IMG/VR virus record: IMGVR_UViG_3300008267_000092
Span: 24,022 to 88,021 of that record
Length of the DNA stretch: 64,000 nt
Direction: 5' to 3' (one strand)
DNA from: a virus
Taxonomy: Duplodnaviria; Heunggongvirae; Uroviricota; Caudoviricetes; Crassvirales
Part shown: piece by piece, positions 6,001-41,696 of the stretch
Layout: the number at the start of each line of letters is the position of its first letter
Position numbering within the stretch: the stretch's first letter is position 1
Position numbers and translations under genes: made by a program
The notes under the pieces: model-generated
Seen by the model: only the letters and a program-made list of their open reading frames with translations
Database searches by the model: none
What the model was told of the DNA's origin: nothing

Positions 6001-6175
6001 TAGTGCTTATACAGGTTTAACAAGAGCTAAAAATACAGCAATTATTATAACAAGTAAGGCTGAAACTAATAGTGACAATGTTAAAAAAGCTTTAAACACA
6101 ATACCTCAAACAACTTTAACTAAAGAAGAGCAGACAAAGGCTGAAGAATTAAAAAAATATTGTAACCCAAGTTAA
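5..6175 (+). CDS. giant multidomain protein (5' partial, >=2056 aa): N-terminal/central region with RNAP-like DxDxD loop, C-terminal RecD/Pif1-like SF1 helicase domain
   Basis: uninterrupted ORF starting at window edge; SDFDIDKM (nt ~1480-1503) resembles the NADFDGDQM catalytic loop of two-barrel RNAPs; C-terminal GKAGTGKTT (Walker A, nt ~4820-4846), IVIDEASMV (Walker B), GDRGQLPPI, SHKSQGSTYDNVIV (SF1 motif VI-like, nt ~5905-5945). Confidence 0.6.
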   Translation: MFTGDVAFYKNMIDYKKRVPATYTDGLQLRLKKGEEHFTVATIDKVEIGSPYHKELVEMLGVEGAKPYSEGKINSADAQAWITPKRWKFLVERLGKWTSDHDSLYTKMMSDGDQSYTAKELKIAAQPLKGVYFYMNGKTPTYLKYSQAVLTPSMLKNSPGLRSIYSQMDKQGVDELITLDGFKTGSPRPTRVHNVDGTVKSEISFNTEQLSNYGWKLQQDLPVKTFKQTDVGSQIQKNIFAGLIHNLELAGFNLDGSETNGQTISDNIVNIVSGLVDKGILDIKEEFDVFRNGEIKNIKGFYKALVRELEKRGGSKNVIDALNKQTALYGMPQSMDKIVSVFSSIMNDRLIKIKTNGGAFIQMSNFGISKEEGDSKGILWNPDIENGSTTYEPRIYTKENGRKSIKPAGILISGSFIAKYIPDYKKYSAEELFKGKDGNPPIIDKKILENLVGYRIPNQGLSSNDALEIIGILPEENGDTIVAYTGITTKTGSDFDIDKMYLMMPNYSLEDDRLVYTTYDSTLSNKKQSKEALQNRLIELYKSVLTHPKVIKDVMTPLDNDVLKDDIVDLIPSESSGTMFHFDAFNDIKLRYEFINGKAGVGQEANAVVDVNRPGNLSINKYNIGWGHVNEKGDTKLDNEYSEALSEQDLNYYKDALVDIKIKELEKKQMHVNNDVREKIKKEVSNYVNNAVKKIKVGDSLTAILNAFVDIAKDPYITRGNWTTSTTNTGNLLIRAGVHPLYVTSFMAQPIIKEYIEYQASKESIITKNTGDIKNKFKKNLAVKNLEKLNDKHPELLKPLELIYQKFAKSNGAINPFTASNAAERLQKMLGKKNTLSGEELENVLITLKREHDRVFNAEKLNITDRKTYNLQHYREQIKNEASADFQIAILDKFYELQTVSKVVKENVDISKLDTNGMGKNVNSLFSTFNLIKHVLDKEKTDRVGVLNGLESKFENTTLAVYHKGLKEILRIVQANPLLFPQADNKVQTMFNEISNDLYDTPAIDKDLVNDLEKEYYTYVMSNFTPFNLSSVEIRNLLSELPVEFENFKKANKGKYVVIDELLNKFDKNFKLITLNNRKKSSSFEEKFTDSWRDLITDHPEFAENLIKYSFLTSGFQMNTNQFFTYIPHEYLLQNNINQFIVNFSRQDQFDFLDKFYLNNTDNYKYVPKVFDSEIQSEDLTSGFTLKQSDKSETGKARYYVSRDAGGGIYKLEGYDSFNRAIYTRIKALGQKRKGSTIVEYGDQFTKSNLETSPEYITRLKNSVVTERDKYNPNFTLDKIADREEDDSTNGLTIEEPTQPSTSISEFDIADKLSPIEQNFKDGTGGRKMQPQFKGKSTMDLIISGDRTRTTRAKTDIQRMTKDYGLSKISDLVGKVIRMTDNTGRQVYTMITNVVPFTQEYQDATWQNEGWEKSVTDKHVNDYPYAIEFKVVDKPTQPSTTQVESVTTELTPGQYVKYNGETYIIVKQNANGTFQILNPTLEGPLSKISVSKEKLQAIGKEAKLVTYKGVEYLVTPNNTIISTVTNKAMNWTENDGNRRAILELANNNIKSSDKIEIPTVEKTVVSKLQEVTIFKPANKEQEVAIEAIKDFIENGNPKEIFTLEGKAGTGKTTLVQEALADSVEKGKNIHIAALSHKAKLVLAQKLEQRFPKKISSSSIAGLLGMKMNEETGEFETGFSEFERPVESADIIVIDEASMVNEEALSLIMSEKRYGTKVIFLGDRGQLPPIRKLSSDEISTVFESSNKASLVERVRQGEESPILPFADYFWDNSESDKPKANPIPEGQIKDSLTSKGNLVFVNNLFDVFEDVVSSFKQGIDSGNFNIIKIVTYKNATRQNYNKQIRKSIFGEDVPQFVVKDQIMFQNNYMSQGVEFSNSDEFSIEAVITSEKNGYKVFDIGVKVDPTKDIITYFSVLAEEDKSKFNEEVARLFEVAKKMAPGQLRKMAYKSAWALKATFAEIDYSYAITSHKSQGSTYDNVIVDLKDIYSVGATTNASKSRSAYTGLTRAKNTAIIITSKAETNSDNVKKALNTIPQTTLTKEEQTKAEELKKYCNPS

Positions 6176-6177
6176 TT

Positions 6178-6681
6178 ATGGAAAATAATAAGAAAAAATT
6201 ATTAAACGATAAAGTTATTAAAACTTTAAATTACAGAATACAACAAGAAGAATATTCTTCAAGAATTTACGAACAATTATCATTATGGTTAAACAATAAA
6301 GGATATTTAAATTTTGCAGAGTTGTTTAAGAAATATTCAGAAGAAGAATTAGTACATGCTAAATTTTCTAAAGATTTTCTATTAGATTATGGTATTACAC
6401 CTTGTCTTGAAGCGTTACCTTCTCCTGAAATGGAAATAGAGTCATTATTAGACGTTTTAGAAGCAGCTTATGAACATGAGCTATTAGTTACTCAACAATG
6501 TGAAGAACTTGCCTCTATGGCTTTAAAAGAAGGTAATCACGTGTTATATCAATTAGCATTAAAGTACTGTGCTGAACAACAAGAAGAGATTGGTAAAGTT
6601 ATTACAAATTTAGATATTTATAAACTAAGTACTGACATGTTGGTTATTGACCATTATGTAGGTGAAAAACTGTTAGGATAA
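6178..6681 (+). CDS. ftn: ferritin (FtnA-like non-heme ferritin, ferroxidase-centre residues conserved)
   Basis: 167 aa; collinear similarity to E. coli FtnA from memory (LNYRIQQEEYSS / SEEELVHAKF / YEHELLVTQQCEELA / AEQQEE), with the ferroxidase-centre positions (E, ExxH, E, QxxE) occupied. Confidence 0.8.
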   Translation: MENNKKKLLNDKVIKTLNYRIQQEEYSSRIYEQLSLWLNNKGYLNFAELFKKYSEEELVHAKFSKDFLLDYGITPCLEALPSPEMEIESLLDVLEAAYEHELLVTQQCEELASMALKEGNHVLYQLALKYCAEQQEEIGKVITNLDIYKLSTDMLVIDHYVGEKLLG

Positions 6682-6682
6682 T

Positions 6683-9600
6683 ATGGTGTGTCCAAATAAA
6701 AGATTAAAGGCTTGGAAAGATTTAGTTAAAGTTGTAGGGGAAGATAAAGCTTATCTTTTATGGGATACCCATGAAGGAAATGTCCCACAACAATATTACA
6801 ATGAACAAAGTATTAATGAATCTGCTACTTTGGTAGCAGGTTCTAATATTTCTGAAGAAAATTTATTTCAATCTACTGTAGATTTTAATGATTTAATTGG
6901 AAATACCAACGAATCTATTTTTACAGATGGTTTTGAAAATAAATCAATTGATTCTGATTTAGGTAAAATAACTGATATTTTATTTAATGGTAATGTTGGT
7001 AATTTAAGAGTTGAACATATTTTAAATAATATTATAGAAAATGTACCTGATATTACAGAACATACTGCTGAAATTATTAACAGGTCTAAAAAACTTTTAA
7101 CTCGTGCAAATGTTAAAGTTGAATTAGTTAAAGATTCAGAAATGGTGTCTAATAATACTGTAATGCAGTATGAAGCTAATACAAATACTATTCAAATATC
7201 TTTAGATAGAATAAACCAATTTGATTCTAAAACTGTAGTTGTTGGATTTTTACACGAAATTGTACATAGTTTAACGGTACAGGCATTAGCTAAAGATCCA
7301 TCTAAAAGAACATTTTCAGAACAAGAATTAGTTGATGTTGTTGAAAACTTTTTAAAAAAATATAAAGACAGTAAATTAACTGAAGAATACGGTTTTAAAG
7401 ATAGGTTTGAATTTGTTGCAGAATTTTACGCAAATCCTGAATTTAGAGATGCTGTTAAAGCTGAATCAGATATTTGGTGGAAAAAAATAGTTGATGCTAT
7501 TAGGAGATTATTTGATGTTGCTAAAAATCCTGAATACACTAAATTATTTGACACTATTATTAAATATGTAGAAAATGATAATGTTGATTTAGAACATATT
7601 GAAAATTTAGATATAATATTTAGAAAAGAAGCAGAATATAAAAAACCTGAATTTGTTACATTTCAAGATAAATTAGATCGATTAAGTGGTAAAGCTATTG
7701 ATAATATTGCACAAGCTAGAGCTCGTACAGCAGCTTCTAAGAAAGCTAAATCTAAGAAGGATCAAAAGACTCATCTAAAGAATATTGATGACTTAATTGA
7801 GGAAATGGATAAGCTTAGTGAGATTAATAAATTACAAGTAATTGCTCAATATACAAATACATTAGCTAAAACGATTTATCAAATAGATAATGGTATGAAA
7901 CGTCTTTATACTAAAACTAAAGATTTTAGAAAAGAGGATTTACTTCCATTATTACAGAGTTATGAAGAGTACTTATTAGCTTACGATTTAACGAATGAAA
8001 TTAATGAACTTCTTGCTGCTTCTCGTAGAGAACTTAAAGTATTATCTGAAGAAGATCAAAAGTCATTAGATGAGATACGTAAAACACTTTCTTATGCTAT
8101 AAGTAGACGTGATGAGCTTGTTAAAGAATTTGTTGATTTAAAAAGAGAACAAGCGGTTAAGGTTTTTGCTAAACCTGAATATAATACCCAAGTTGAAACT
8201 GATTTTAGAAATAGATTATACAAGGAATATGCACAATTAAATATTCAAGGTGAATCGCGTGATCAGTATGTATCACGAATGTTAGCTACAAGAGATAAAG
8301 ATGAATATGAAAAAGCATTAGTTGCTTCTGCTGAAAAAATGATTAACAATCCTTCTTTAGATATAAGTTCTTTTAAAGCAAAATTTTCGGATCATTTAAA
8401 TATTAGTAGTAAACTTATTCAAATTATAACCAATATTACAAGTGCAGTAAGAGAAAAAATTACATCACAGTATAAGGATTATGATTTAATGTTAAATGAC
8501 CTGTTTAAAGATTTGGTAAAAGAAAAAGGTAATAAAAAACCTTCTGAGGCATTTAAGAATATATATGAGCAAGATAAAGACGGTAATTATTTCTTTAAAG
8601 GTGTGTATAGCATTAAATTTAGAGATATTTATTTAGAAGAATACATTCCATTAAAACAAGCGTTATCTGAAATTACTGAAAAATTAAAATTGCAGGGATT
8701 AACTAAAAAAGAATATCTTACAAATGATGAATATAAACAAGCTGATGCAAATGCAAAAGCTTGGATGAAAAAACATACACTTAAAGATCACAATGACCCT
8801 ACAGGTAAAGCTTGGTATCCTAGACCTATTTATAAGAATGCTGAGGTTACAGGTATGGATAAACAAGTTTTAAAAGAAGCAATCGCTTTAGCTAAACTCG
8901 GACATAAAGAATTTAAAGGTAAAAGGTCGTTAATTAGAAAAACAGGTAATGTCCAATTTTATAAGTTTCCAGCTATTACAAAATCTAATTTTGAAAGAGC
9001 TGTTGAAATGGATGCAAAAGGTATTGTTAAAGATATAAAAGCTGATTTAACTGAAATTAGACCTGATGATATAGGATATGGTGAACCTGTATCTAAAACA
9101 GGTGAATCTTTAAAAAGTATTAAAGTGCATTTTAGAGGTGAATTGAGTCCAGACCAACAATCTTTAGATGTTCTTTCAATACTTCGTAAAGAATATTTAA
9201 ATGTTATTAGTTATAAAGAAAAGTCAAAAGAAGAGGCTTCTATCTTATTAGTTGCTGATATTTCTAAAAATAAAGAATATCTACAAATATCTAAAAAAAC
9301 AGGATTACCATTATTAAATGCTTTTAATAAAAATGAACCTATTGAAACAATGTCAGGTGAATTTACAAATGAGTATTTGAAAATTAAAGGTATTATTGAA
9401 AGAACGGTATATGATACATTTCACGAACATGGTGGTAATTTTAGTGGTGTAGATATAAATAAAATTACAAGTTATGTCAATGGTATGACAGCTACAATCG
9501 CGATGTCTTTTGATATCGCATCAGGTACAGCAAACGTACTTAATGGTTTTACACAATTATTTATTGAATCCGTAGGTGGTGATGTATTTAGTACAAAATC

Positions 9601-10804
9601 ATTACTAAAAGCAGAGGCTAAATATACTTCAGATATGCCTAATATTTTACGTGATTTAAGTAGCCCTGTAAAAACTTCATTTACAAATCAATTATTAGAA
9701 ATGTATGATGTTTTTGGTGGGTTTGACCCTGCAACTCAAGAGTTTATTAGAAATAGTGTTGCTAAAAAATTAGCATCTAGACAAACATTAAATGGTTTGA
9801 ATGAGATGGGTGAACATGCTATGAACTCTGTAGTAACAATGAGTGTATTAGATGGTCTTAAAGTAATGAATGCTGAACATAAATATATTGACAAAGATGG
9901 TAAAATTGTAGATTCTGAAAATGAAGCAGCATCGTTACTTGATATGCTTATATTTAATGACAAAGGTAAGTTGGTAATGAGTGATAGTGTTAAATTTACT
10001 AAACAAAATTTAACTGTCGATTATCATAAGGGTGGTAAAGTTCACGTTAACTTATTAATCAAAAATAAAATATTTGATGTATTTGGTGTATATGATAACA
10101 ACTTTAAAAATGAATTTTCAAAAACTGTATTAGGTAAACTTACGATGATGTTTAAAAACTTTTTCCTAAGTGCTGCACAATATAGATTTACAGGTATTCA
10201 AACATCTTTAAAAAGTAAAGAAGATTTAACTGATGATGATTTAAATTATAACACAGCTAAAAAAGAATATACTGAAGGTACTTATGTCACGTTAATTCGA
10301 TATTTTAAAGAAGCTGTCATACCTGCGTTAAAAAATCTTGAATTAATGTATGTTAAAGAGGTATATAGTGGACTATCTGATCATGAAAAAGCAAACCTTA
10401 AAAAAGTAACGGTTGAAATAATGTTAACGTCTATTATTATACCTGCAATAGGTGCATTGATTGCATCGGCTGCAGGACCAGATGATGATGAAACATGGTT
10501 TATGGTTTATCAATTACGAAGACTTGAATCAGAATTATCTCAATTTAGAAACCCAATTGAGGCAGGTAAGATTATTACAAATCCTATTGCTGCAGTAAGA
10601 TTACTTCAACATGGTTTAAGTTTTGCGTATGAAGTTGCAACACCTTTGGATTTTGCACCAGATAAAGGTGATCATTTCTTTTCATATTTAAATGAAGATT
10701 CTAAACATCAAAACATTTTACTTAAAAAAGGTAAAAAAATAGTTCCAATTTGGTCAAAAATGGATCGTGATTATAAACAACTTTATTCACTTATTAATAA
10801 GTAA
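6683..10804 (+). CDS. giant protein (1373 aa) with HExxH zincin-like metallopeptidase motif and C-terminal hydrophobic segment; probable virion/ejection protein
   Basis: long ORF; VVGFLHEIVHSLT (HEIVH) at nt ~7250-7270; predicted TM helix IMLTSIIIPAIGALIASAAG near C-terminus; coiled-coil-rich central part. Confidence 0.5.
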   Translation: MVCPNKRLKAWKDLVKVVGEDKAYLLWDTHEGNVPQQYYNEQSINESATLVAGSNISEENLFQSTVDFNDLIGNTNESIFTDGFENKSIDSDLGKITDILFNGNVGNLRVEHILNNIIENVPDITEHTAEIINRSKKLLTRANVKVELVKDSEMVSNNTVMQYEANTNTIQISLDRINQFDSKTVVVGFLHEIVHSLTVQALAKDPSKRTFSEQELVDVVENFLKKYKDSKLTEEYGFKDRFEFVAEFYANPEFRDAVKAESDIWWKKIVDAIRRLFDVAKNPEYTKLFDTIIKYVENDNVDLEHIENLDIIFRKEAEYKKPEFVTFQDKLDRLSGKAIDNIAQARARTAASKKAKSKKDQKTHLKNIDDLIEEMDKLSEINKLQVIAQYTNTLAKTIYQIDNGMKRLYTKTKDFRKEDLLPLLQSYEEYLLAYDLTNEINELLAASRRELKVLSEEDQKSLDEIRKTLSYAISRRDELVKEFVDLKREQAVKVFAKPEYNTQVETDFRNRLYKEYAQLNIQGESRDQYVSRMLATRDKDEYEKALVASAEKMINNPSLDISSFKAKFSDHLNISSKLIQIITNITSAVREKITSQYKDYDLMLNDLFKDLVKEKGNKKPSEAFKNIYEQDKDGNYFFKGVYSIKFRDIYLEEYIPLKQALSEITEKLKLQGLTKKEYLTNDEYKQADANAKAWMKKHTLKDHNDPTGKAWYPRPIYKNAEVTGMDKQVLKEAIALAKLGHKEFKGKRSLIRKTGNVQFYKFPAITKSNFERAVEMDAKGIVKDIKADLTEIRPDDIGYGEPVSKTGESLKSIKVHFRGELSPDQQSLDVLSILRKEYLNVISYKEKSKEEASILLVADISKNKEYLQISKKTGLPLLNAFNKNEPIETMSGEFTNEYLKIKGIIERTVYDTFHEHGGNFSGVDINKITSYVNGMTATIAMSFDIASGTANVLNGFTQLFIESVGGDVFSTKSLLKAEAKYTSDMPNILRDLSSPVKTSFTNQLLEMYDVFGGFDPATQEFIRNSVAKKLASRQTLNGLNEMGEHAMNSVVTMSVLDGLKVMNAEHKYIDKDGKIVDSENEAASLLDMLIFNDKGKLVMSDSVKFTKQNLTVDYHKGGKVHVNLLIKNKIFDVFGVYDNNFKNEFSKTVLGKLTMMFKNFFLSAAQYRFTGIQTSLKSKEDLTDDDLNYNTAKKEYTEGTYVTLIRYFKEAVIPALKNLELMYVKEVYSGLSDHEKANLKKVTVEIMLTSIIIPAIGALIASAAGPDDDETWFMVYQLRRLESELSQFRNPIEAGKIITNPIAAVRLLQHGLSFAYEVATPLDFAPDKGDHFFSYLNEDSKHQNILLKKGKKIVPIWSKMDRDYKQLYSLINK

Positions 10805-20528: not shown

Positions 20529-21998
20529 TTATATAAAAGGGTTAGATAAATAATCCGAAATGAGATCTTCTACACTTGTTGTAGTTGAAATTTCAGATAT
20601 TTTACTATACCAGTCAAAATAACTATGATTACCATAGTCTTCCTCATCAAATAATACACCTTTTAATTTTGAAAAATGGCAAGTATTCTCTTGTCTAGTT
20701 AAAATATAGTTGACCAGTCTATCATATATTGAGTATCTGTAAGATATATTATTTCTATTACAGTAATCTTTAATAATATACATTAAGCGATTTTGATTCT
20801 CACTACAATTTAATGCATTACCTTCTAGAATATTTTTAGTGTTTATTTTAGCATAATCTACAAGTATTGTACTTAATAATAAAAACATTGAAATTTTAGA
20901 CATATCATATGTTGGAGTATGAATTCTAAATTCAATTGTAGTTTTATTACCAAAAATTAAAGGTATTAAATTATGTATGAAATAACGATGTTTTATATTC
21001 CACTTTTGATTACCACTTGGATCATTTGGGTGATGAGTAACATTATTTAAATCGTTATTAAAATCATAAAATGAAACACCTCCTGACAAATAACTAAATA
21101 AAACATTAAAGTTATAATCAATATTTTTAGAAGTTATTACAGGATCCATTTTTGAAATTAAAGAATATGTAGGATAAGGTTTACTATAATTCTTATTTTT
21201 AATATTAAAATTATATTTTTTATATAACGGAAATAATTCAAAAATGTCGTCTTGTATAAAAGTTGTTAATTTAAAAAATGCTAAAATAAATTCTTTTGTT
21301 CTAGGTACATTTCCAATATGCATATGAAGAGCACAGCTATTATCAAATTCAGTTCTTTCTTTTAGAGCTTTTGTTGTATCAAATAGTGTCTGCACCCCTT
21401 TTACACCTTGTAATGGAATTGTTACATATTCAATACCTGAAATACTACCGTCACGTAAAGGAATTAATCCTAATTTATCTGTAATTCTTTGAGGTATGTA
21501 ACCTTTAATTGTTTCAAATTCAAGTCCAAAAGTGTAATCTTTTAAAGCTTTTCCAACCTCATTAGAGCCATGTAATACTTCAAATTCATATTTTGAGTTA
21601 TATCTCTGAATGTGTGAAATGTGAAAATAAAGACCCGATGATAATTCTTCACGATATTTTTTATTTTGAATTAAAATGTTTTCATTCATCGCAGGTATCA
21701 CGATTCCGTGTTTATTTTCAAAATACATAACGTGATTTGATCTCTGGAACCAACCTATTTTGTCATTTTCAATTAAACCTGAGAGTAAATTTGCATTTTT
21801 AAGAGTGTATTTCTTAAATGTATTACAATATACAATATTACCTTTTTCAACACGGTAATACTTATCATTAATTTTATAACAATCCCCTGAATTTTCAATT
21901 TCAGGATCTCCGATTTTATAATATTTACCTTCAAAAATTCTTGTTTTAGAAATAGGTAGAGACTCACCACTTACAGTTGTTACTATTTTTTCAATCAT
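20529..21998 (-). CDS. GCS2-like carboxylate-amine (COOH-NH2) ligase / amidoligase paralog with ~145 aa N-terminal extension
   Basis: FGLEFET (GvEeEf-like N motif) and ALHMHIGN (GxHxH motif), same motif pair as 23889-24686. Confidence 0.45.
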   Translation of the reverse strand: MIEKIVTTVSGESLPISKTRIFEGKYYKIGDPEIENSGDCYKINDKYYRVEKGNIVYCNTFKKYTLKNANLLSGLIENDKIGWFQRSNHVMYFENKHGIVIPAMNENILIQNKKYREELSSGLYFHISHIQRYNSKYEFEVLHGSNEVGKALKDYTFGLEFETIKGYIPQRITDKLGLIPLRDGSISGIEYVTIPLQGVKGVQTLFDTTKALKERTEFDNSCALHMHIGNVPRTKEFILAFFKLTTFIQDDIFELFPLYKKYNFNIKNKNYSKPYPTYSLISKMDPVITSKNIDYNFNVLFSYLSGGVSFYDFNNDLNNVTHHPNDPSGNQKWNIKHRYFIHNLIPLIFGNKTTIEFRIHTPTYDMSKISMFLLLSTILVDYAKINTKNILEGNALNCSENQNRLMYIIKDYCNRNNISYRYSIYDRLVNYILTRQENTCHFSKLKGVLFDEEDYGNHSYFDWYSKISEISTTTSVEDLISDYLSNPFI

Positions 21999-22005
21999 TG
22001 TTTAA

Positions 22006-23877
22006 TTATATTTTTAAAAAGTTATTCATTTGGTGTAAAGAATCATCAAGAAAATCAATTATATGTCCTGCTACATAATTATCTTTATATTTTTCTAATT
22101 TACTTTTAAGTTTTTGAAAATCTGAAAAACTTTCAGCTAAGTCTTCATCTGCAAGATTTAAAACTAATTCAGAAATTGATTCTTCTTCATCAATTAAAGT
22201 ATTTAATATGTCTTCATCAGAATCAGGTTCTACTACAACTTTCATAAATGAAGGATTATCCCAAGCATCTAATTTTGCTAATTCAGCATCTATAACTTTA
22301 TCAATTTCAGAAACTTCTTCAACAGGAAGTTCTTTTGAAAGATATGTATTTACAGAAGAACTTACAAGATTACCTAAACTTATAACATATTTCTTTTCGG
22401 AACCTAATGGACAAATTTGACCACTAAAAGGTTTTCCATTAAATAATATATTTTGATGTTTCACATCACAAACATCTTTATCTAAATCAATTACAGGGTG
22501 TGTTGATAAGCTTGATAAAGTGTGAAAATCTAAATACTTTCTATTTTTACCTAAATATCTAGTATATGCAATATTATAATCAATCGAAGTTCTTAAATTA
22601 ACACCTTCTACAAAATAAAATAAACTTGGATTTAGGCAGTTTTCACTTTTAAATGGTATAAATTGATTTTTAAGATTTGGATTAACTGCTTCAAACGCAC
22701 CATTAATAAATACTTTATCAATATGAAAATAAAAACGTTCCGTTGCCTCTTTAATATTAGATTCTAAATAATGAAAACCATAACCAGGTATCCATGTATA
22801 AATACCTGTAATAGGTAAACCTTTTTTTAAATATCTTAATTTATTAAAATATACCTTGTTATCATAACTACCAAGTGATTGTAAAGTGGTTTCGTTATAA
22901 ATATTAGAAGTTACAACCTTACTTTCAATAACAGAGTTAGAAGGACTTATAGTTTTTGTAGATTCATTACTTTTGTAACCATAATCGTAGTCCCAATCTT
23001 CATATCCATAATTATGTCCTGAATAGTTTCTTCCTGAATATTGTTTATTATAATTTGTAGAATAATCTTCTTTTTGATACGCTTTTTTACGACTAACTTT
23101 AATTTTTTTAGCGTTTTTAAAATCTCCATCTGTAATAACATATACTGTATTACTGTCTATCGCTTTAATTTTAGTATCATCATCACTAATTGTTTTCAAT
23201 GCTGATTCTAATGAAGACACGTACATACTATTATCATTTTCAAGATATACAAATAATGGACGTTCTTCTACCATTTTTGAATCATTATCTGAAGATAAAC
23301 TTTTTGAAGCACCTTTCCATAAATAACCTACATTGGGTGTATCTGTGTCTGTCCAAAATAAAGCAGCACCTCCAATATATTCACTCAAAACTTTAAAATT
23401 ATTTGAACGATATAATATTTCCAATAATAATTCAGAATCAATTTTAGTTCTAACTGAATCTACAATATTATTTTGATAAGTTGTTAATTTATAATCTGCA
23501 GTTAATTCAACATTGTATTTTTTAGCTAATTCTGTATGATTTGAAAGTGTTCCATTATGACAACCTATAAATTTAAAACCTGAATTAACATTATTTACAT
23601 CAAACCCAAAAGGATGGGCATTATAAGAATTTACCGCACCTACACTTGATTGGCGAGTGTGTCCAATTACAATAGGGTATTCAAAAGGTTTAATATTATT
23701 TTCAACTATAAAATCATAATATAATTTATTTTTATCTAAACCTATATAAATTTCTCCATCATAAGATACACCACAAGAACTTTTACCTCGTTCTACATTA
23801 TATATACCTAATTTGTCAAATTTATCTTTATTAAAATCTTTAGGATCTTTTCCTAAATAACCAAATATTCCACACAT
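22006..23877 (-). CDS. class-II glutamine amidotransferase (Ntn hydrolase) domain protein with Tyr/Asn-rich linker and acidic C-terminal tail
   Basis: N-terminal MCGIFGY (Cys2 nucleophile hallmark of GATase-II/Ntn); no PP-loop SGGxDS so not AsnB/QueC; C-terminal DSDEDILNTLIDEEES. Confidence 0.65.
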   Translation of the reverse strand: MCGIFGYLGKDPKDFNKDKFDKLGIYNVERGKSSCGVSYDGEIYIGLDKNKLYYDFIVENNIKPFEYPIVIGHTRQSSVGAVNSYNAHPFGFDVNNVNSGFKFIGCHNGTLSNHTELAKKYNVELTADYKLTTYQNNIVDSVRTKIDSELLLEILYRSNNFKVLSEYIGGAALFWTDTDTPNVGYLWKGASKSLSSDNDSKMVEERPLFVYLENDNSMYVSSLESALKTISDDDTKIKAIDSNTVYVITDGDFKNAKKIKVSRKKAYQKEDYSTNYNKQYSGRNYSGHNYGYEDWDYDYGYKSNESTKTISPSNSVIESKVVTSNIYNETTLQSLGSYDNKVYFNKLRYLKKGLPITGIYTWIPGYGFHYLESNIKEATERFYFHIDKVFINGAFEAVNPNLKNQFIPFKSENCLNPSLFYFVEGVNLRTSIDYNIAYTRYLGKNRKYLDFHTLSSLSTHPVIDLDKDVCDVKHQNILFNGKPFSGQICPLGSEKKYVISLGNLVSSSVNTYLSKELPVEEVSEIDKVIDAELAKLDAWDNPSFMKVVVEPDSDEDILNTLIDEEESISELVLNLADEDLAESFSDFQKLKSKLEKYKDNYVAGHIIDFLDDSLHQMNNFLKI

Positions 23878-23888
23878 AATTTATTTTT

Positions 23889-24686
23889 TTAATTTGTTAA
23901 AATGTAACTATCTTTTTCAATTTGTCTAAGTAGTAGTTTTGCTAGTTTTCTATCATTGTTATCAATTGCTTCCACTACTTGAGCTGAATATTTATCAATA
24001 TAGTGGGTATGCTTACCGTCTAATACGTGTTCTACAGCTTTTATTGTTTGATCAAATACCCATTTAATCAATGTGTTGTCGTGTATCCAAAAATTAGATA
24101 ATTGACGACATTCTAATCCAAAAAGTTTAGGTCTAAAAGAACCAGCTTTACCATATAGTTCTCTTCTTCGTTCATCGTTATCCAATAATAATGAAGGTAA
24201 TGTTACAAAAATATCAAACATTTTTACAATATTGACAGTTTTTTCAAATTCAGGATCTGGATAACCTATATGAATATGTCCGCCCACACATCTCAAATTA
24301 GTATTTGTATCAGGTTTAGGGTTTATCATTTCCGTATATACGTTGTAATCAGGTTCACAACCAAATAATTGTGCTTGTTCAGATTGCAAATGTATAGGGT
24401 TTATTTCATCTGAAGCTTTTGTAGATAGTTCAAATCCGTGTGAATTTGCAATGACTTCAAGATATTCTTTAACATAATTAATGTTTTCAATATATTCATC
24501 TGCAGTACTACAAGGAGGAATGTTAAATTCAAATGCAATATTATCGGTTTGAATGAAATGACCCTTATCTGTAATTGGATAAGGATCATCTTTAGTTCCA
24601 GGAATTAATCCTACTGCAGATACAATTTCAGTATCATTTTCAATAAATACTTCAGGGTCACTACCTAATTTAATGTCGTATTTCAT
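23889..24686 (-). CDS. GCS2-like carboxylate-amine ligase (amidoligase)
   Basis: KLGSDPEVFIE N-terminal motif and VGGHIHIGYP (GxHxH) typical of glutamate-cysteine-ligase family 2 / phage amidoligases. Confidence 0.5.
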   Translation of the reverse strand: MKYDIKLGSDPEVFIENDTEIVSAVGLIPGTKDDPYPITDKGHFIQTDNIAFEFNIPPCSTADEYIENINYVKEYLEVIANSHGFELSTKASDEINPIHLQSEQAQLFGCEPDYNVYTEMINPKPDTNTNLRCVGGHIHIGYPDPEFEKTVNIVKMFDIFVTLPSLLLDNDERRRELYGKAGSFRPKLFGLECRQLSNFWIHDNTLIKWVFDQTIKAVEHVLDGKHTHYIDKYSAQVVEAIDNNDRKLAKLLLRQIEKDSYILTN

Positions 24687-24705: not shown

Positions 24706-25398
24706 TTATAGTAATTTTGAGTTTAAAAGTTTATCGTTAATTAAATTTAAAGTCATTTTGACTGTAGCATGTTCTTCACTCATCCATTCAGGATGACCTT
24801 GTATTGCCAAAGCTCTTGAATTAGGATACATTACAATTTCAGGTTCTACAAAGTTAGAAGGTAATTGAATTTCTTCATTATCCCCATTCAAATAAGTATC
24901 ACTATTAAAATATGTTGAATGATAAAGAATTTCATAAAATTCACTTTTAAGTTTAAAAGGGTACATCATTTGATGATGATCTCCTGACATTGTATATTCT
25001 TCAGCTCTACCATTAGATTTTGAAATTGTATGTGTGCAATTTCTATGTCCTGTTGTATGTTGGATTAACGCACCACCTTCCATCACTGTTAACAATTGAG
25101 CACCTCTACAAATTCCTAAAAAGGGAACCATTCCTCTAAAGTTAAGATATACAGTTCCTTCAACTAAATCTCGTTGTGTATCACAATTTGTGTATTTACC
25201 CTTTTTTTCTTCATATTTTCGAGGTTCTACATCTGCACCTCCTGTAAAAACGATTAGTGAAGGAGTATTTTCATAATCTACATCTGTTGTAAAATTTAAA
25301 ACTTCAACATCAAACATTACGTTTAGGTAGTTGACACAGGATTTATCTGTGATACCATCCGCAAACATTATTTTTAATTTTTGTTTATTACTTTCCAT
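24706..25398 (-). CDS. class-I glutamine amidotransferase-like / peptidase C26 (gamma-glutamyl hydrolase-like)
   Basis: GICRGAQLL (nucleophile elbow Cys), QGHPE (His-Glu). Confidence 0.65.
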   Translation of the reverse strand: MESNKQKLKIMFADGITDKSCVNYLNVMFDVEVLNFTTDVDYENTPSLIVFTGGADVEPRKYEEKKGKYTNCDTQRDLVEGTVYLNFRGMVPFLGICRGAQLLTVMEGGALIQHTTGHRNCTHTISKSNGRAEEYTMSGDHHQMMYPFKLKSEFYEILYHSTYFNSDTYLNGDNEEIQLPSNFVEPEIVMYPNSRALAIQGHPEWMSEEHATVKMTLNLINDKLLNSKLL

Positions 25399-26290
25399 TT
25401 TTAATTGCTTTTTTAATTATTAATTTTGGTAACATTTCAATATATTTTTGAGCACATATTGAAATATCTTCATTTTCTAAATTACCCATAGAACTTGCAC
25501 TATTACATTCTAAAAGTATGTAATCTTGATATTCTCTAGGTTCACCTTTTTTAGTATAGGGTGTTTGTACTTTAACATCAAATGATAAAATATCAGCACC
25601 TATACTAATCAGAGCGTTTACACAGTCATTAACAATATCATCCCAGCTATTTGGTTTATGGAAAGATTCATTTTCCTCTAAAAACCATACGCAGATATCG
25701 TCATGTCGTCGCCATTTTTCATTTTCAGGAACATTTTCCTTCAATGCTTTTCTACAGGTATAGAAGCAACCATCTTCTGTTACATGCAATCTAAATTCAT
25801 GACCATAGTTTACAAATTTTTCAAAGATATAATTACTAAGATTTTTACCTTCCATCCAAGATTCTAATTCTTCTTGAGATTTAATTAAAGTATTACCTTT
25901 ACCTTTAGAACCATAATGAGCTTTAGCTACAATAGGAAAAGGTAAGTTTTCAATTTCTACACGAGAGCTTTCAATATTTACAAAAAAATTTTGAGCATAT
26001 ATAAACATTTCTGCAGTTTTAACACCTGCTTCAGTAAACTTCTGTTTCATTAGAAGCTTATTTGCAGATATTTTAACTGCTTGAATGGTATTAATTTCAA
26101 TACGATTACCTCCATTATCAATAGTATCTTCTACCTCTGTAGATGATCCAAATCTTATTACCGATTTATATGGTAGCAAATTAAATTTTTTAAATTTAGA
26201 TCTGAATATATCATGACTTGGATGTCTTGATAAAATCATAGGTCTAAATAATGTAAACTTACTTTTACGACGTGTCATTAATTTGTTCAT
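25388..26290 (-). CDS. ATP-grasp ligase (RimK/glutathione synthetase-like)
   Basis: FPIVAKAHYGSKGKGNTLIKSQEEL, EFRLHV, ILLECNSASSMG (Mg-binding E-x-N). Confidence 0.7.
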   Translation of the reverse strand: MNKLMTRRKSKFTLFRPMILSRHPSHDIFRSKFKKFNLLPYKSVIRFGSSTEVEDTIDNGGNRIEINTIQAVKISANKLLMKQKFTEAGVKTAEMFIYAQNFFVNIESSRVEIENLPFPIVAKAHYGSKGKGNTLIKSQEELESWMEGKNLSNYIFEKFVNYGHEFRLHVTEDGCFYTCRKALKENVPENEKWRRHDDICVWFLEENESFHKPNSWDDIVNDCVNALISIGADILSFDVKVQTPYTKKGEPREYQDYILLECNSASSMGNLENEDISICAQKYIEMLPKLIIKKAIKNGK

Positions 26291-26961
26291 TATAAAGTTA
26301 ATAAGTGATTAATTAATTTGATAGCAAATTCATCGTGAATTTCTTCTGGATGATATTGTACAGTGTGTGCAGGGTAATAAGGATAATATGAAAGAGCTTC
26401 AACTTCTCGATCTTTTTCATGTACAGCTAAAACTGTAGCCGTGGTCGGTACTCTATCAACTGTTTGATGATGAATACTATTAATTTTAAATTTTGTAGGT
26501 ATTTCATTTAAAAATTTAAAATCTTCAATTTTTCTATTTATTAATGACACTTCATGTACTAATTTTCCACGATCAGAATCATTTGTTTCGTGATACATAT
26601 CTTGAACGAGTGTACCTCCAAAGTGAACTGCTAGAGATTGATGACCTCTACATATTCCAAATATTGGAATACCATCTAAAATATATTTAGGTAATAATAC
26701 ACGATCAAATCGCTCTCTAAAAGGACACGATTTACCCATATATAATGAAAGTTCATCACTTTCTTTTAAATATCTTGAAGGGTCCACATCTGGTCCTCCA
26801 GGTAATACTAATAAATCTAAATCTTTACGAGTTTCCATTTCATTATGGACAATCATTGTAACATAGCCAAATTGACTAAAAAAGTTTAAGTATGCTTCAG
26901 GTATTCCATATCCTCCAGCTACAGGGTATGCTACAATTCCAATATTTTTTAATGATTTCAT
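26290..26961 (-). CDS. class-I glutamine amidotransferase-like / peptidase C26
   Basis: GICRGHQ nucleophile elbow, QYHPEE His-Glu dyad. Confidence 0.7.
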   Translation of the reverse strand: MKSLKNIGIVAYPVAGGYGIPEAYLNFFSQFGYVTMIVHNEMETRKDLDLLVLPGGPDVDPSRYLKESDELSLYMGKSCPFRERFDRVLLPKYILDGIPIFGICRGHQSLAVHFGGTLVQDMYHETNDSDRGKLVHEVSLINRKIEDFKFLNEIPTKFKINSIHHQTVDRVPTTATVLAVHEKDREVEALSYYPYYPAHTVQYHPEEIHDEFAIKLINHLLTL

Positions 26962-26972
26962 GTTTATTTATT

Positions 26973-27395
26973 TTAATAGGTTAAATGTTTTGTTTCGTGA
27001 TAATCTTTCCAATCTCCAGATTCTACAATCTTTTGTAAATTTAAATTTTCTAATACATCGTTGTATAGATATACATAAATTTCACCATAAGGTGAATCAA
27101 TTTTACGACGATTATAATGATTTGTTGCAGAATTAAAAGAGTAATACCCTTCTAGACAATCTAATTTTTCTAAAGTATTTTCTGTAACTTCATAAACTTC
27201 AACGCTTATAGAAGTGTTACCTTTATTAATAATTGCAGGGTATGATCCTAAATCATACATTGAAAATTCAGGTAACGTTTGAAACGTACCCACTAATTTA
27301 GAATTACCTAATATTTTATGATTTGATAGTCCTTCACGAAGACTACCATACACCCCTACTAATATAGGGGAATTTGTTTGTTTGTTATTGTGCAT
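26973..27395 (-). CDS. gamma-glutamyl cyclotransferase (GGCT/AIG2-like)
   Basis: VGVYGSLREG, VEVYEV, LDCLEGY (catalytic Glu) signature. Confidence 0.75.
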   Translation of the reverse strand: MHNNKQTNSPILVGVYGSLREGLSNHKILGNSKLVGTFQTLPEFSMYDLGSYPAIINKGNTSISVEVYEVTENTLEKLDCLEGYYSFNSATNHYNRRKIDSPYGEIYVYLYNDVLENLNLQKIVESGDWKDYHETKHLTY

Positions 27396-37293: not shown

Positions 37294-38199
37294 TTAAAAA
37301 AGTGACAGTTGATTAAAATTATTTACTTCGTCTATTATTTCTTGTGTTTTACGAATATAATATGAATAATTTATTTGATATTCGTCAAATGGTTTTTCTT
37401 TATACTCGTTAAAGATTTCAACACCTTCTCCCACATTAACATGTTGCATTGTACCCATACCATGCTTTTGTTTGAATAAATATGGTTTATTCTTGCTGAA
37501 ATAATACCTATTAAGTTGTTGCTGAATTTCGTTATTCCAATATACCACATAGTCTTTACTTATTTTATTAGATTTACAATAGTCATAGATGTGTAGGTTG
37601 TGTTTATCAGGATTTGATATATATTCATTAGGGGGTATCCCTCTAATATAATATTCATTCAATGCCTTAGATATAATTAATTCATTACATGAATCACCTA
37701 ATGGTATTTCTCTTTTATTGTCCTCATTAAAAGGTAATTTGAAAAAACCTTTACGTTTTATTTTACCACCACCTGTTTCACAAATATAATTATTGACATT
37801 TTTATAAATGATTTTATTATAATTCTCATGTTCAAATTCAAGATTAAATTTTCGAGCTGTAATATCTAAAATATCTTGATATTGTTTTAACATATGCATA
37901 GGTACTAACACTTCAATTCCGTCAGTATTTGCAGAGACAACTTGCCATTTGTTAATAATACAAATTTCAATACATTTAGTTAAAAATATTTGACCTATTA
38001 ATCGTAATCTCATTGCACCTTCAGGATAATATAACCAGCTATGGGAATTATCCAATAAACCTGATGTTGAATTAAGAATAAGTTTAAGAAATGAATCTTT
38101 AGCTTTATTTTTATTACGTTTAGCCTCAATACGTTCTGTTTTTACTTGTCTGTATCGATCTAACACTTCAGGTTGTCTAATACATCCATAATTTAACAT
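37294..38199 (-). CDS. family-B-like DNA polymerase, C-terminal fragment (motifs B and C)
   Basis: KLILNSTSGLL (KxxxNSxYG-like motif B), SANTDGIEVL (DTD motif C). Confidence 0.5.
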   Translation of the reverse strand: MLNYGCIRQPEVLDRYRQVKTERIEAKRNKNKAKDSFLKLILNSTSGLLDNSHSWLYYPEGAMRLRLIGQIFLTKCIEICIINKWQVVSANTDGIEVLVPMHMLKQYQDILDITARKFNLEFEHENYNKIIYKNVNNYICETGGGKIKRKGFFKLPFNEDNKREIPLGDSCNELIISKALNEYYIRGIPPNEYISNPDKHNLHIYDYCKSNKISKDYVVYWNNEIQQQLNRYYFSKNKPYLFKQKHGMGTMQHVNVGEGVEIFNEYKEKPFDEYQINYSYYIRKTQEIIDEVNNFNQLSLF

Positions 38200-38225
38200 T
38201 ATATTTGGATATAGTGCTTATATCC

Positions 38226-38966
38226 TTAATCCAGTATGTTTCCATCTGGCTGGACTATATCATTATTTAAAACTTTAACCCATTTAAAACCATACATTGA
38301 TGGTTTTTCACCACTACAACACGCGTAAATATTATGTACTTTATAGGTGGGATTATCAATTATAATATCCTTTACCTTTTTCCATTCTTTTATTAGTGTT
38401 GTACCGTTTTTAGAATATTGTAAAATTGTGTATTTTGTGTGAATATCCGATACCTTTTTCTTCATTTGTTCTTTTATTTCTGGATTTTCTTTCCAAAATT
38501 TAGATGAAGATTTACTTATTTTAATTCTTTCTTCAGGATTTTCATATCTTTTTTTATGTGAAATACTCATTTTAATACGTGTATTTTCATGACAAATCAT
38601 ATTTGTAGAAGAATCTCTTCTCAAATTGTATCCTAATTTAGAATCTGTTGTTTTGTAAAAATCTATCCAAAACAATTCTTTTTCTTTAATTATTGATTCA
38701 AAATCTTTAATATTTTTATCAATAATTTCAAGTACAAAATATTCAAATTTTTCTTTTCCGTATTTCCACCACGCATTTATAAAATATTGATTTTCTCTTT
38801 TGGGGTCTTTAGCGTTAAGTCCTCCAATATGATTATATATTCGTTGTCTAATATTTATAGATTTTCCAATATATTTTTTATCCGTTTCAATATTTCTAAT
38901 GCAGTAAATACCACAAAGACCCTCATGTAATTTATTTGTTTTCATATAAAATTTTATTTTATACAA
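38226..38966 (-). CDS. GIY-YIG homing endonuclease
   Basis: GIYCIRNIETDKKYIGKSINIRQRIYNH (GIY..YIG..R..H). Confidence 0.8.
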   Translation of the reverse strand: MYKIKFYMKTNKLHEGLCGIYCIRNIETDKKYIGKSINIRQRIYNHIGGLNAKDPKRENQYFINAWWKYGKEKFEYFVLEIIDKNIKDFESIIKEKELFWIDFYKTTDSKLGYNLRRDSSTNMICHENTRIKMSISHKKRYENPEERIKISKSSSKFWKENPEIKEQMKKKVSDIHTKYTILQYSKNGTTLIKEWKKVKDIIIDNPTYKVHNIYACCSGEKPSMYGFKWVKVLNNDIVQPDGNILD

Positions 38967-39222
38967 AGATACATTATTTTGAGGTAATATCCTAATTAAT
39001 TAGGGTAAATTTTACATAAATTTTATATTACTATAGCGTTTATGTGTTTTAAATACTTCCTGTTTAGTCTCTGAACCTTTATCCCATTAGGACACTTGGC
39101 TGCGGATTGACCAATCTTTATCTTTTTTACTATACTGAGGTAATTATTCTCACCACATAGTATGTTACCACCTATGTTTAGTAGATAAAGCTCTAAGGTT
39201 ATTCCCGTCAATTTAAGAAGTT
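38967..39222 (-). ncRNA. GC-richer structured segment, candidate group I intron core upstream of the GIY-YIG ORF
   Basis: GGACACTTGGCTGCGGATTGACC, GCGCCACTTTAACGC; the 70-aa ORF 39023..39235 here is probably not coding. Confidence 0.35.
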
Positions 39223-40194
39223 TTAATTGCGCCACTTTAACGCAATATCTGAGGTCATAATTTGTAAATCATTATCTGTATAATATTGTTCATTTTCATT
39301 AACAGAATGAAGACCTCCAATACCATATGTTAATCTAATATTTGTATTATTGTAATTAACTAAAAGTTCTTTACTGAATGTATCTTTACCATTTAATATT
39401 TCTAACCATAAATTTTGAAATATTGGTAATTTAAATTCAGGGTCAAAACCTTTTAAGATTTCATTTAAATACAATGTAGGTTTTTCATATCTTGTATTTC
39501 TGACTTCATTTATCTTTCTAGATGTTATCTTACAATAATCTGATAATAAAGCTTCTGATGCAATTTTTGGTGCATCCCAAGACCAACAATTTAAATTATA
39601 CTCTTTAATAATATTACCTCTTAAACGAATTTCTCCCTCCATTTCTAAAGTTAATAATTCTAATATACCTAAGTCGTGGGTATAATTATAATATCTTAAC
39701 TTAGGGAGATCTTCTAAAGATAATATAGAGTTTGGTTTAAATGGTAATTCTTGTACAACAGGATAACCTAATTGAATACCTAAAGATTTTAAACTTATCT
39801 TTTTAGAAATTCTTAACATTTTTGACCAATATGCAAACAAATCTATATCAATCCATTTAGATTTCATATATTTAATTTGTTTAACATCTTCGTCAAAAAT
39901 GTCATCTATTATTTTATCTGAGAAATATTTTAATTCTAGACATATATTTGAATATCCTAAGTACTTCAAATTTTCATAATTTTTAACTAAATACTTGACA
40001 ACCATGTTATCGTAATGTAATCCGTTAAAACTTATTAAAAATCCAGTATAACTTTTAAAAAATCCATATATTTTATCTATATCGTTTCTTTCTTCAGATA
40101 TTTCATAAAATGTAATTTCTTTAGTGACGAAATCTTTTATACCAACACAGAAATAATTTTTGTAACATTCTATATCGTATAGTTTTTTATTCAT
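39223..40194 (-). CDS. DNA polymerase N-terminal fragment with 3'-5' exonuclease motifs
   Basis: YDIECYKNYF (Exo I DxE), FNGLHYDNMVV (Exo II N..YD). Confidence 0.55.
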   Translation of the reverse strand: MNKKLYDIECYKNYFCVGIKDFVTKEITFYEISEERNDIDKIYGFFKSYTGFLISFNGLHYDNMVVKYLVKNYENLKYLGYSNICLELKYFSDKIIDDIFDEDVKQIKYMKSKWIDIDLFAYWSKMLRISKKISLKSLGIQLGYPVVQELPFKPNSILSLEDLPKLRYYNYTHDLGILELLTLEMEGEIRLRGNIIKEYNLNCWSWDAPKIASEALLSDYCKITSRKINEVRNTRYEKPTLYLNEILKGFDPEFKLPIFQNLWLEILNGKDTFSKELLVNYNNTNIRLTYGIGGLHSVNENEQYYTDNDLQIMTSDIALKWRN

Positions 40195-41195: not shown

Positions 41196-41696
41196 TTATT
41201 TATTAATGTAAGTTCTACCACAAGAAATATCTCGAATTGTAGTGTATGGTAAATTATATTGAATTGCTAAATTTCTTAAATTTAACTTTTCATTATTTTT
41301 TCTACGAGTTTTAATAATATTGTAAATAGTTAAAGCTATTTCATTATTTATTAACATGTTTGGTGGTGTATTTCCTTTTTCAAATCTTTTACCTATTGGT
41401 ACAATCATTCTGTTTTTATTATAACAATCTTTCATATTTTCACTTTGTGTACCTAAAAATAAATGATTAGGATTGACACATTTACGGTTATCACATTTAT
41501 GACAAACATTTAATGTTTTATCTGTAATTATACCATACGTTAACTCATAAGATAATCTATGAGAACTATGTGTTTTTTCTTTTGTTTTAAACGCACCGTA
41601 TCCATTTAATCTGCATGATGCAGTCCATTCCCAACAATCATCTTCTGATTTAATATTTACTTTATCCCAGAATTTTTTAATTTGTTGTTCATTCAT
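41196..41696 (-). CDS. HNH homing endonuclease
   Basis: [23 protein letters not shown] (His-Me finger). Confidence 0.8.

Follow-up and report, generated by a model that had tools for sequence, protein, structure and literature searches.

How would a class-II glutamine amidotransferase (GATase-II) head operate in a protein that carries no synthetase and whose gene lies between two ligase genes? This question is raised by an open reading frame (ORF) at positions 22006–23877 of a 64,000-nucleotide stretch of the IMG/VR virus record IMGVR_UViG_3300008267_000092 (positions 24,022 to 88,021 of that record; hereafter the window), which as a whole represents a low-GC crAss-like phage. The ORF, as well as all the protein parts and module genes described below, is located on the minus strand. 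It encodes 623 aa followed by a stop codon (22006–22008), uses an ATG start and begins with MCGIFGY; at the local base composition (26% G+C), 623 stop-free codons would occur by chance with a probability of about 6e-28. As a tentative answer, which we favour without regarding it as settled, the protein would be the active glutaminase half of a split amidotransferase, with a co-translated amidoligase of the glutamine synthetase (GS) fold as its partner and with C-terminal parts that may serve docking or recognition.

The catalytic head

A total of 455 homologs were found at E<=1e-3, the full-length ones being about 580–730 aa long. The closest annotated relative is g040 of the Cellulophaga phage phi14:2 (Crassvirales, Steigviridae; 33.8% identity over aa 2–513), a direct orthologue that already carries an amidotransferase annotation. 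Based on the alignment of 60 full-length homologs, 36–66% identical to the window protein, and on an AlphaFold model (mean predicted local distance difference test score, pLDDT, 84), the protein was divided into five parts, namely the GATase-II head, linker 1, a middle domain, acidic linker 2 and a helical hairpin.

The head (aa 1–268; 23074–23877) was assigned to the class-II, N-terminal nucleophile (Ntn) GATase fold using Pfam, a PDB profile search and Foldseek. In the window protein Pfam recognised GATase_6 alone, at aa 68–181; among the 60 family members, GATase_6 was matched in 59, GATase_7 in 40 and GATase_4, weakly, in 20. NCBIfam, PDB sequence and Foldseek searches grouped aa 1 to about 268 with the glutaminase domains of PurF, GlmS, AsnB and EgtC, and the PDB profile search with the family matched PurF and GFAT/GlmS, aa 1–175 being aligned to GFAT1. 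The model of aa 1–270 (pLDDT mostly above 90) showed the four-layer alpha-beta-beta-alpha Ntn fold, with Foldseek matches to GFAT/GlmS (E 2e-11), PurF, AsnB, EgtC (E 5e-8) and TsnB9. No synthetase or PP-loop domain was detected by Pfam at E<=10, by the PDB profile search or in any of the 60 family members.

The HMMER alignment with E. coli PurF paired C2 with C1, R30-G31 with R26-G27, R75 with R73 and N108-G109 with N101-G102, the oxyanion hole. In the family, the head residues C2, G3, R30, G31, H73-T74-R75, H107-N108-G109 and D147-S148-E149 are invariant, the last three within an invariant K-I-D147-S-E motif; from the resemblance of this motif, D147 is presumably the counterpart of the alpha-amino-binding Asp of PurF (D127) and GlmS (D123). 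The Cys-Gly pair is kept throughout (120 homologs, 74 loci); a further 23 residues of the head are also invariant, among them the catalytic set known from PurF/GlmS. Because the PurF-equivalent residues and D147-S-E are invariant and the family and fold matches agree, the head is, as judged from sequence, a canonical class-II GATase-type Ntn hydrolase under strong purifying selection. Cys2 (codon 23872–23874), the predicted nucleophile, becomes N-terminal after the removal of Met1 and lies within a canonical glutamine/gamma-glutamyl pocket, in which Arg75 and, presumably, D147-S-E serve the alpha-carboxylate and alpha-amino groups and Asn108-Gly109 provides the oxyanion hole, together with Arg30-Gly31.

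An initial annotation of the window had proposed a class-II Cys2 nucleophile, the absence of a fused PP-loop synthetase partner and an architecture unlike those of GlmS, PurF and AsnB. All three proposals were supported: the cysteine is conserved in every homolog, the C-terminal region matches no synthetase, the predicted structure of the head matches known Ntn/GATase-II folds, and the protein possesses extra parts of its own.

Note that the head contains a second invariant cysteine, Cys35 (23773–23775), near the active site in the motif R-G-x-S-S-C-G, where PurF and GlmS have R-G-x-D-(S/A)-A-G.

Exposure of the nucleophile

In 32 of the 74 loci, including the window, a start codon (ATG, twice GTG) is located directly before the Cys codon, with stop codons just upstream. 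The other 42 loci (about 57%), phi14:2 among them, have no Cys-adjacent start codon and encode a propeptide of 26–48 aa with its own ATG. The Cys is thus preceded by a start codon or by a propeptide, and by nothing else, in 74/74 loci, and in every locus it must become residue 1. The propeptide is hydrophobic like a membrane helix (mean Kyte–Doolittle value 2.2 over 19 residues) and ends in a conserved junction, K(P6)-x-N(P4)-x-L(P2)-N/S(P1), followed by C-G. It is found, for example, at the N-terminus of phi14:2 g040 (locus L001) and at 8001–8084 of locus L003, and is absent from the window at 23878–23888. A propeptide that requires removal is also used by some PurF and GltB enzymes; a membrane-helix-like one, present here in most orthologues, is unusual for this enzyme class.

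A neighbour-joining tree of the family requires at least 11 changes between the propeptide and Met-Cys states; therefore, the propeptide is dispensable and has been repeatedly gained or lost. The earlier idea that the protein is autoproteolytic is supported for the family, since in 42 of the 74 loci the product has to lose a propeptide, and does not apply to the window copy, which starts with Met-Cys.

Two other interpretations of the propeptide were considered and rejected. A lipoprotein signal peptide would need a lipobox, with which the charged K-P-K separating the hydrophobic stretch from the Cys, N or S at P1 and a predominant T at P3 do not agree; in addition, the Cys is the Ntn nucleophile. 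A gene-calling artefact was rejected by reading the DNA itself.

The genomic module

The genes on both sides of the ORF encode ligases, as the initial annotation had stated. Downstream, starting 7 nt past the stop codon, lies the gene of an Amidoligase_2 protein, a GS-fold carboxylate-amine ligase of 489 aa (20529–21998). Upstream, ending 11 nt before the ATG, is the gene of a phiEco32-like COOH-NH2 ligase type 2 of 265 aa (23889–24686), which resembles gamma-glutamylcysteine synthetase (GCS). The module further includes a C26/GATase-I gene (24706–25398), a RimK-like ATP-grasp gene (25388–26290), a second C26/GATase-I gene (26290–26961) and a GGACT/GGCT cyclotransferase gene (26973–27395). The PDB sequence searches with both flanking ligases gave no match, and PADLOC found no defence or anti-defence hits among the seven module proteins.

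In more than 70 crAss-like loci the gene order is nearly invariant: primase, one or two GGCT genes, a facultative C26 gene, ATP-grasp, a facultative C26 gene, COOH-NH2 ligase, the gene under study and Amidoligase_2, with RusA, a PD-(D/E)XK exonuclease and dUTPase continuing downstream. The COOH-NH2 ligase gene is directly upstream in all of the 69 full-length loci. Amidoligase_2 follows directly wherever the contig continues, the median gap being about 2 nt (range −26 to +23). GGCT is present in 65 and C26 in 63 of these 69 loci, and sixteen loci contain two GGCT genes. The module belongs to the early/replication gene block of Steigviridae-type crAss-like phages. In phi14:2 the entire replicative module falls into the early class, the transcription of which is due to the RNA polymerase injected from the virion, and the orthologous cluster g037–g041 is located inside it.

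Some loci deviate from this pattern. ATP-grasp and C26/GATase-I are jointly absent from L063, L064, L065 and L069, which points to a functional pair; phi14:2, which has ATP-grasp and no C26, is an exception. In L014, L017, L019, L021, L022, L024, L026, L028, L051 and L056 one of the genes of the module (that of the COOH-NH2 ligase, of C26 or of the amidoligase) is represented by two neighbouring ORFs. These split ORFs could reflect frameshifts, assembly errors or stop-codon recoding, the last being known in some crAss-like phages.

Linkers, middle domain and acidic tail

Linker 1 (aa 269–324; 22906–23073) is predicted to be disordered (pLDDT <50 for aa 274–322) and is poorly conserved. Its composition is first rich in Tyr, Gly, Asn and Asp and then in Lys and Glu. 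The low-complexity stretch YSTNYNKQYSGRNYSGHNYGYEDWDYDYGY at aa 272–301 (22975–23064) contains 9 Tyr in 30 residues (P=1.6e-4 per window, about 0.09 after correction), so that for the window sequence alone the enrichment is of marginal significance after correction. Family-wide, Tyr is mildly enriched in linker 1 (9.3% against 5.6–7.5% in the folded parts), and in the clade of the window strongly so. A Tyr/Gly-rich linker recurs in the orthologues, even in the distant cr108_1: YYESGYSSSYGYEKAY...KKATKEEEE. Only Tyr297 (70%) and an I-x-x-P motif are semi-conserved, the remainder being essentially unconserved. In the I-x-x-P motif (aa 310–313; 22939–22950) I is kept in 60% and P in 72% of members, and in the window protein Ser takes the place of the Pro. 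Tyr297 and I-x-x-P may constitute a short linear docking motif.

The alpha/beta middle domain (aa 325–510; 22348–22905) is conserved and confidently modeled. Its residues R348, G358, F395, G425, D433, S455, P461, Y497 and G502 are invariant, and H460 and Q475 are nearly so. No relatives were detected in PDB or Pfam. A profile search of 1.84e9 proteins gave 222 hits, all of them representing this same fusion, with the domain found neither alone nor in other architectures; the short hits were gene fragments. The comparison with the C-terminus of the GATase-II of the podophage CVT22 using hhalign revealed no similarity. The match in cr108_1 is weak but real, and that in the cyanophage Lbo-JY46 is partial or uncertain.

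Linker 2 (aa 511–553; 22219–22347) is acidic and predicted to be disordered (pLDDT <50 for aa 515–526 and 532–552); its mean net charge in the family is -4. It is followed by a predicted acidic two-helix hairpin (aa 554–623; 22009–22218; helices at 554–597 and 601–622), in which E578 is 87% conserved. The tail is acidic across the family (mean net charge -8), and in the window protein aa 511–623 have a net charge of -19. The C-terminal residue varies (K 24, N 14 and E 10 of 75, and others) and is acidic in 19% of members. The initial annotation had described the C-terminal ~370 aa as a low-complexity linker and a strongly acidic end. Both are present, and the acidity extends to the family; however, a folded domain of 185 aa was overlooked, and the end itself is predicted to form a two-helix hairpin.

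In cr108_1 (L005) and L075 the GATase-II is short (487–492 aa) and lacks the acidic hairpin, and these are the sole complete loci without GGCT. The loss of hairpin and GGCT in the two loci was probably a single evolutionary event, and the pattern hints that the tail and GGCT go together.

Proposed function and its alternatives

In the proposed split amidotransferase, Cys2 would attack the gamma-carboxamide of glutamine, giving a gamma-glutamyl thioester and releasing ammonia, with which Amidoligase_2 would then amidate an ATP-activated carboxylate. The C-terminal 355 aa show no recognisable catalysis; the tether, middle domain, second linker and hairpin could be lineage-specific docking or recognition elements that would keep the glutaminase attached to the partner ligases or the substrate of the module. 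The module would be expressed early, alongside the replication genes. Such a pairing is the simplest explanation for the absence of a fused synthetase domain, and the close coupling of the two genes in every locus that extends far enough speaks for it. A further argument is that the head matches the synthetase-coupled GATase_6/7 groups better than the stand-alone GATase_4 group. Unrelated phages also possess the pair of GATase-II and amidoligase, and for OM43 phages no other component of the set has been reported (PMC10580990). A lone ligase and amidohydrolase would be sensible as an amidotransferase, whereas in an add-then-remove scheme they would run a futile cycle, and this favours the split amidotransferase.

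A number of observations weigh against this proposal. The pocket residues do not discriminate glutamine from a gamma-glutamyl-amide substrate, and Gln76 stands at the position of PurF Tyr74 and GlmS Trp74, which we take to be the gate of the ammonia channel. We infer ammonia transfer to the amidoligase from adjacency alone, and a fusion of GATase and amidoligase occurs in 0/74 loci. The presence of one or two GGCT and one or two C26 gamma-glutamyl hydrolase-like proteins implies that gamma-glutamyl-amine conjugates are intermediates, and a pure supply of ammonia leaves both unexplained. Docking by the middle domain and hairpin is, likewise, a proposal. Some of the otherwise invariant middle-domain residues are not kept in cr108_1; this argues against catalysis by the domain, without pointing positively to another role.

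Some of these observations lead to the nearest alternative, which we consider possible, if on the whole unlikely: a deprotection similar to that carried out by EgtC. A flanking ligase, most obviously the upstream GCS-like COOH-NH2 ligase, would add a gamma-glutamyl group to an amine of the pathway substrate and, some steps later, the Ntn enzyme would remove it together with the C26 hydrolases and GGCT; the leaving group would be an amine, not ammonia, and the middle domain would recognise the conjugate. The tag-processing role put forward in the initial annotation corresponds to such a removal and remains a live rival. Gln76 would suit this alternative if the aromatic residue that it replaces is indeed the channel gate, as we presume. 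The COOH-NH2 ligase is the constant upstream neighbour (69/69), and both GGCT (65/69) and C26 (63/69) belong to classes that cleave gamma-glutamyl-X bonds. The head matches EgtC in Foldseek (E 5e-8), and one third of the members (20/60) match GATase_4. Precedents exist in the transient gamma-glutamylation by EgtA and EgtC (PMC5790434) and in the cyclotransferase BtrG, which takes off a protective gamma-glutamyl group (bioRxiv 10.1101/2025.01.15.633182). On the other hand, the matches to PurF, GlmS and AsnB are stronger than those to EgtC in both sequence and fold, and the tightest coupling is to the downstream amidoligase and not to the upstream ligase. The module already contains three other dedicated gamma-glutamyl-cleaving proteins, so that a fourth would be redundant, and the phages reported with amidoligase and GATase-II only would be left with the futile cycle (PMC10580990).

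A more distant idea, to which we attach little probability, is that the protein is a membrane-primed zymogen of an early-expressed six-enzyme module, whose product would be an amide- or gamma-glutamyl-derived modification of phage DNA or of its nucleotide precursors. In most orthologues the transmembrane-like propeptide would be shed by self-cleavage at L-N/S|C, and the middle domain, itself of unknown fold, would serve to recognise some macromolecule linked to replication. Beside thymidine-hypermodification genes in viral contigs, the Weigele group noticed amidoligase and amidotransferase genes that are uncharacterised (PMC8989533). The ORFs scanned in the replication block of the window contained no 5-HMUDK, aGPT-Pplase, hydroxymethylase or TET/JBP marker; therefore, the DNA-modification idea remains speculative. 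If true, crAss-like phages of the Steigviridae, and the corresponding podophages, would achieve hypermodification by a new route.

It is highly doubtful that the protein is itself an acceptor or carrier, with its disordered Tyr-rich linker or acidic tail modified (e.g., glutamylated) by the ATP-grasp or GS-like ligases and its head processing the tag, after the model of RimK acting on ribosomal protein S6, or of pupylation. This was also suggested in the initial annotation, and was not borne out. The two long disordered segments and the acidic tail, whose character is conserved across the family, the RimK-like ATP-grasp in the module and the conservation of E578 would be consistent with it. 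However, a conserved acidic or Gln C-terminus is found in none of the module proteins, the C-terminal residue of the GATase-II protein itself being acidic in only the fifth of members mentioned above, and the disordered segments are barely conserved, in linker 1 only at Tyr297 and I-x-x-P. Moreover, in the prediction the tail is not a free end but forms a structured helical hairpin, cr108_1 and L075 keep the ligases without the tail, and four loci keep the tail-bearing protein without ATP-grasp. An acceptor of the RimK or Pup type in the strict sense was rejected, there being no conserved C-terminal Glu or Gln, or Gly-Gly-Gln/Glu, as the ligation point.

Least probable by far is a catalytically dead scaffold that organises the ligases, which the long non-catalytic C-terminal extensions and linkers would suit, since the start codon or propeptide junction always makes the Cys residue 1 and every catalytic residue is invariant in sequences as little as 36–66% identical to the window protein, this combination indicating strong purifying selection on the Ntn mechanism.

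The protein is a member of a phage system already known, though uncharacterised; the relative-less domain, the acidic hairpin, the translational coupling and the propeptide polymorphism are new. In the papers found, which extend up to 2025, the function of the module is given as speculation only (cell-wall modification, superinfection immunity). The amidoligase module occurs in abundant phage groups, namely crAss-like phages, LUZ24-like therapeutic Pseudomonas phages, Zobellviridae, OM43 phages and archaeal viruses. Strict selection for the catalytic activity of the Ntn enzyme provides a handle on the function of the module, and the translational coupling to a GS-fold amidoligase suggests a split amidotransferase made of a class-II glutaminase and a GS-fold ligase. 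The compact middle domain is a good target for structure determination and substrate finding, the propeptide offers an easy way to assay self-processing, and phi14:2 can be cultivated, which makes the system open to experiment.

Other features of the window

The DNA polymerase of the window is split (37294–40194, minus strand): the ORF at 39223–40194 corresponds to positions 54–357 of phrog_1252 and the ORF at 37294–38199 to positions 377–654. A GIY-YIG endonuclease ORF (38226–38966) is located between the halves and an HNH endonuclease ORF (41196–41696) nearby. The split is likely to represent a homing-endonuclease intron or a split gene. Two giant ORFs occupy positions 5–10804 on the plus strand and encode proteins of 2056 aa and 1373 aa (6683–10804). 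In the former, a Dda-like helicase region was found at aa ~1537–2036 only, the first 1500 aa being without a match; the latter had no PHROG match.

Comparison with known systems

The window contains the complete phiEco32-like amidoligase set, namely COOH-NH2 ligase type 2 (PF14395), Amidoligase_2 (PF12224), GATase-II, ATP-grasp, C26/GATase-I and AIG2/GGCT. This module was reportedly predicted bioinformatically by Iyer, Abhiman, Burroughs and Aravind in 2009. The same enzymes are encoded in an early block beside primase in LUZ24-like phages (UFV-P2 also has the set), Zobellviridae (CVT22) and phi14:2. However, the podophage GATase-II proteins are shorter (392–486 aa), and that of CVT22 has a zinc-ribbon-like C-terminus. 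The middle domain and the acidic hairpin are confined to the crAss-like lineage, Lbo-JY46 showing a partial match at most.

EgtC, a class-II GATase-fold enzyme of the ergothioneine pathway, removes glutamate after the action of the gamma-Glu-Cys ligase EgtA, its reaction being the hydrolysis of a gamma-glutamyl amide (PMC5790434). Like EgtC, the window protein has a class-II GATase fold, no fused synthetase and an adjoining GCS-type carboxylate-amine ligase. However, EgtC is a single-domain protein of about 230 aa from the GATase_4 group, whereas the window protein matches GATase_6 only and has 355 extra residues.

The split amidotransferases GatD/MurT and CarA/CarB consist of a glutaminase subunit and an ATP-dependent ligase subunit. 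They share the logic proposed here, a glutaminase and an ATP-dependent ligase as separate, co-translated subunits, but their glutaminases are class-I enzymes with a catalytic triad and their partners are Mur-ligase or ATP-grasp proteins. To our knowledge, no characterised system combines a class-II Ntn glutaminase and a GS-fold amidoligase.

PurF, GlmS/GFAT and AsnB share with the window protein the fold, the N-terminal Cys, the Arg and, presumably, the Asp substrate anchors and the Asn-Gly oxyanion hole. Compared with PurF and GlmS, the window protein has the extra invariant Cys35, and Gln at what is presumably the position of the aromatic channel gate. In PurF, GlmS, AsnB and GltB the glutaminase is fused to its acceptor domain (phosphoribosyltransferase, sugar isomerase, PP-loop synthetase or flavin mononucleotide domain), which the window protein lacks. 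Instead of the acceptor domains of PurF, GlmS and AsnB, it carries a domain without relatives and an acidic hairpin on disordered linkers, and its putative synthetase is a separate protein, the GS-fold amidoligase.

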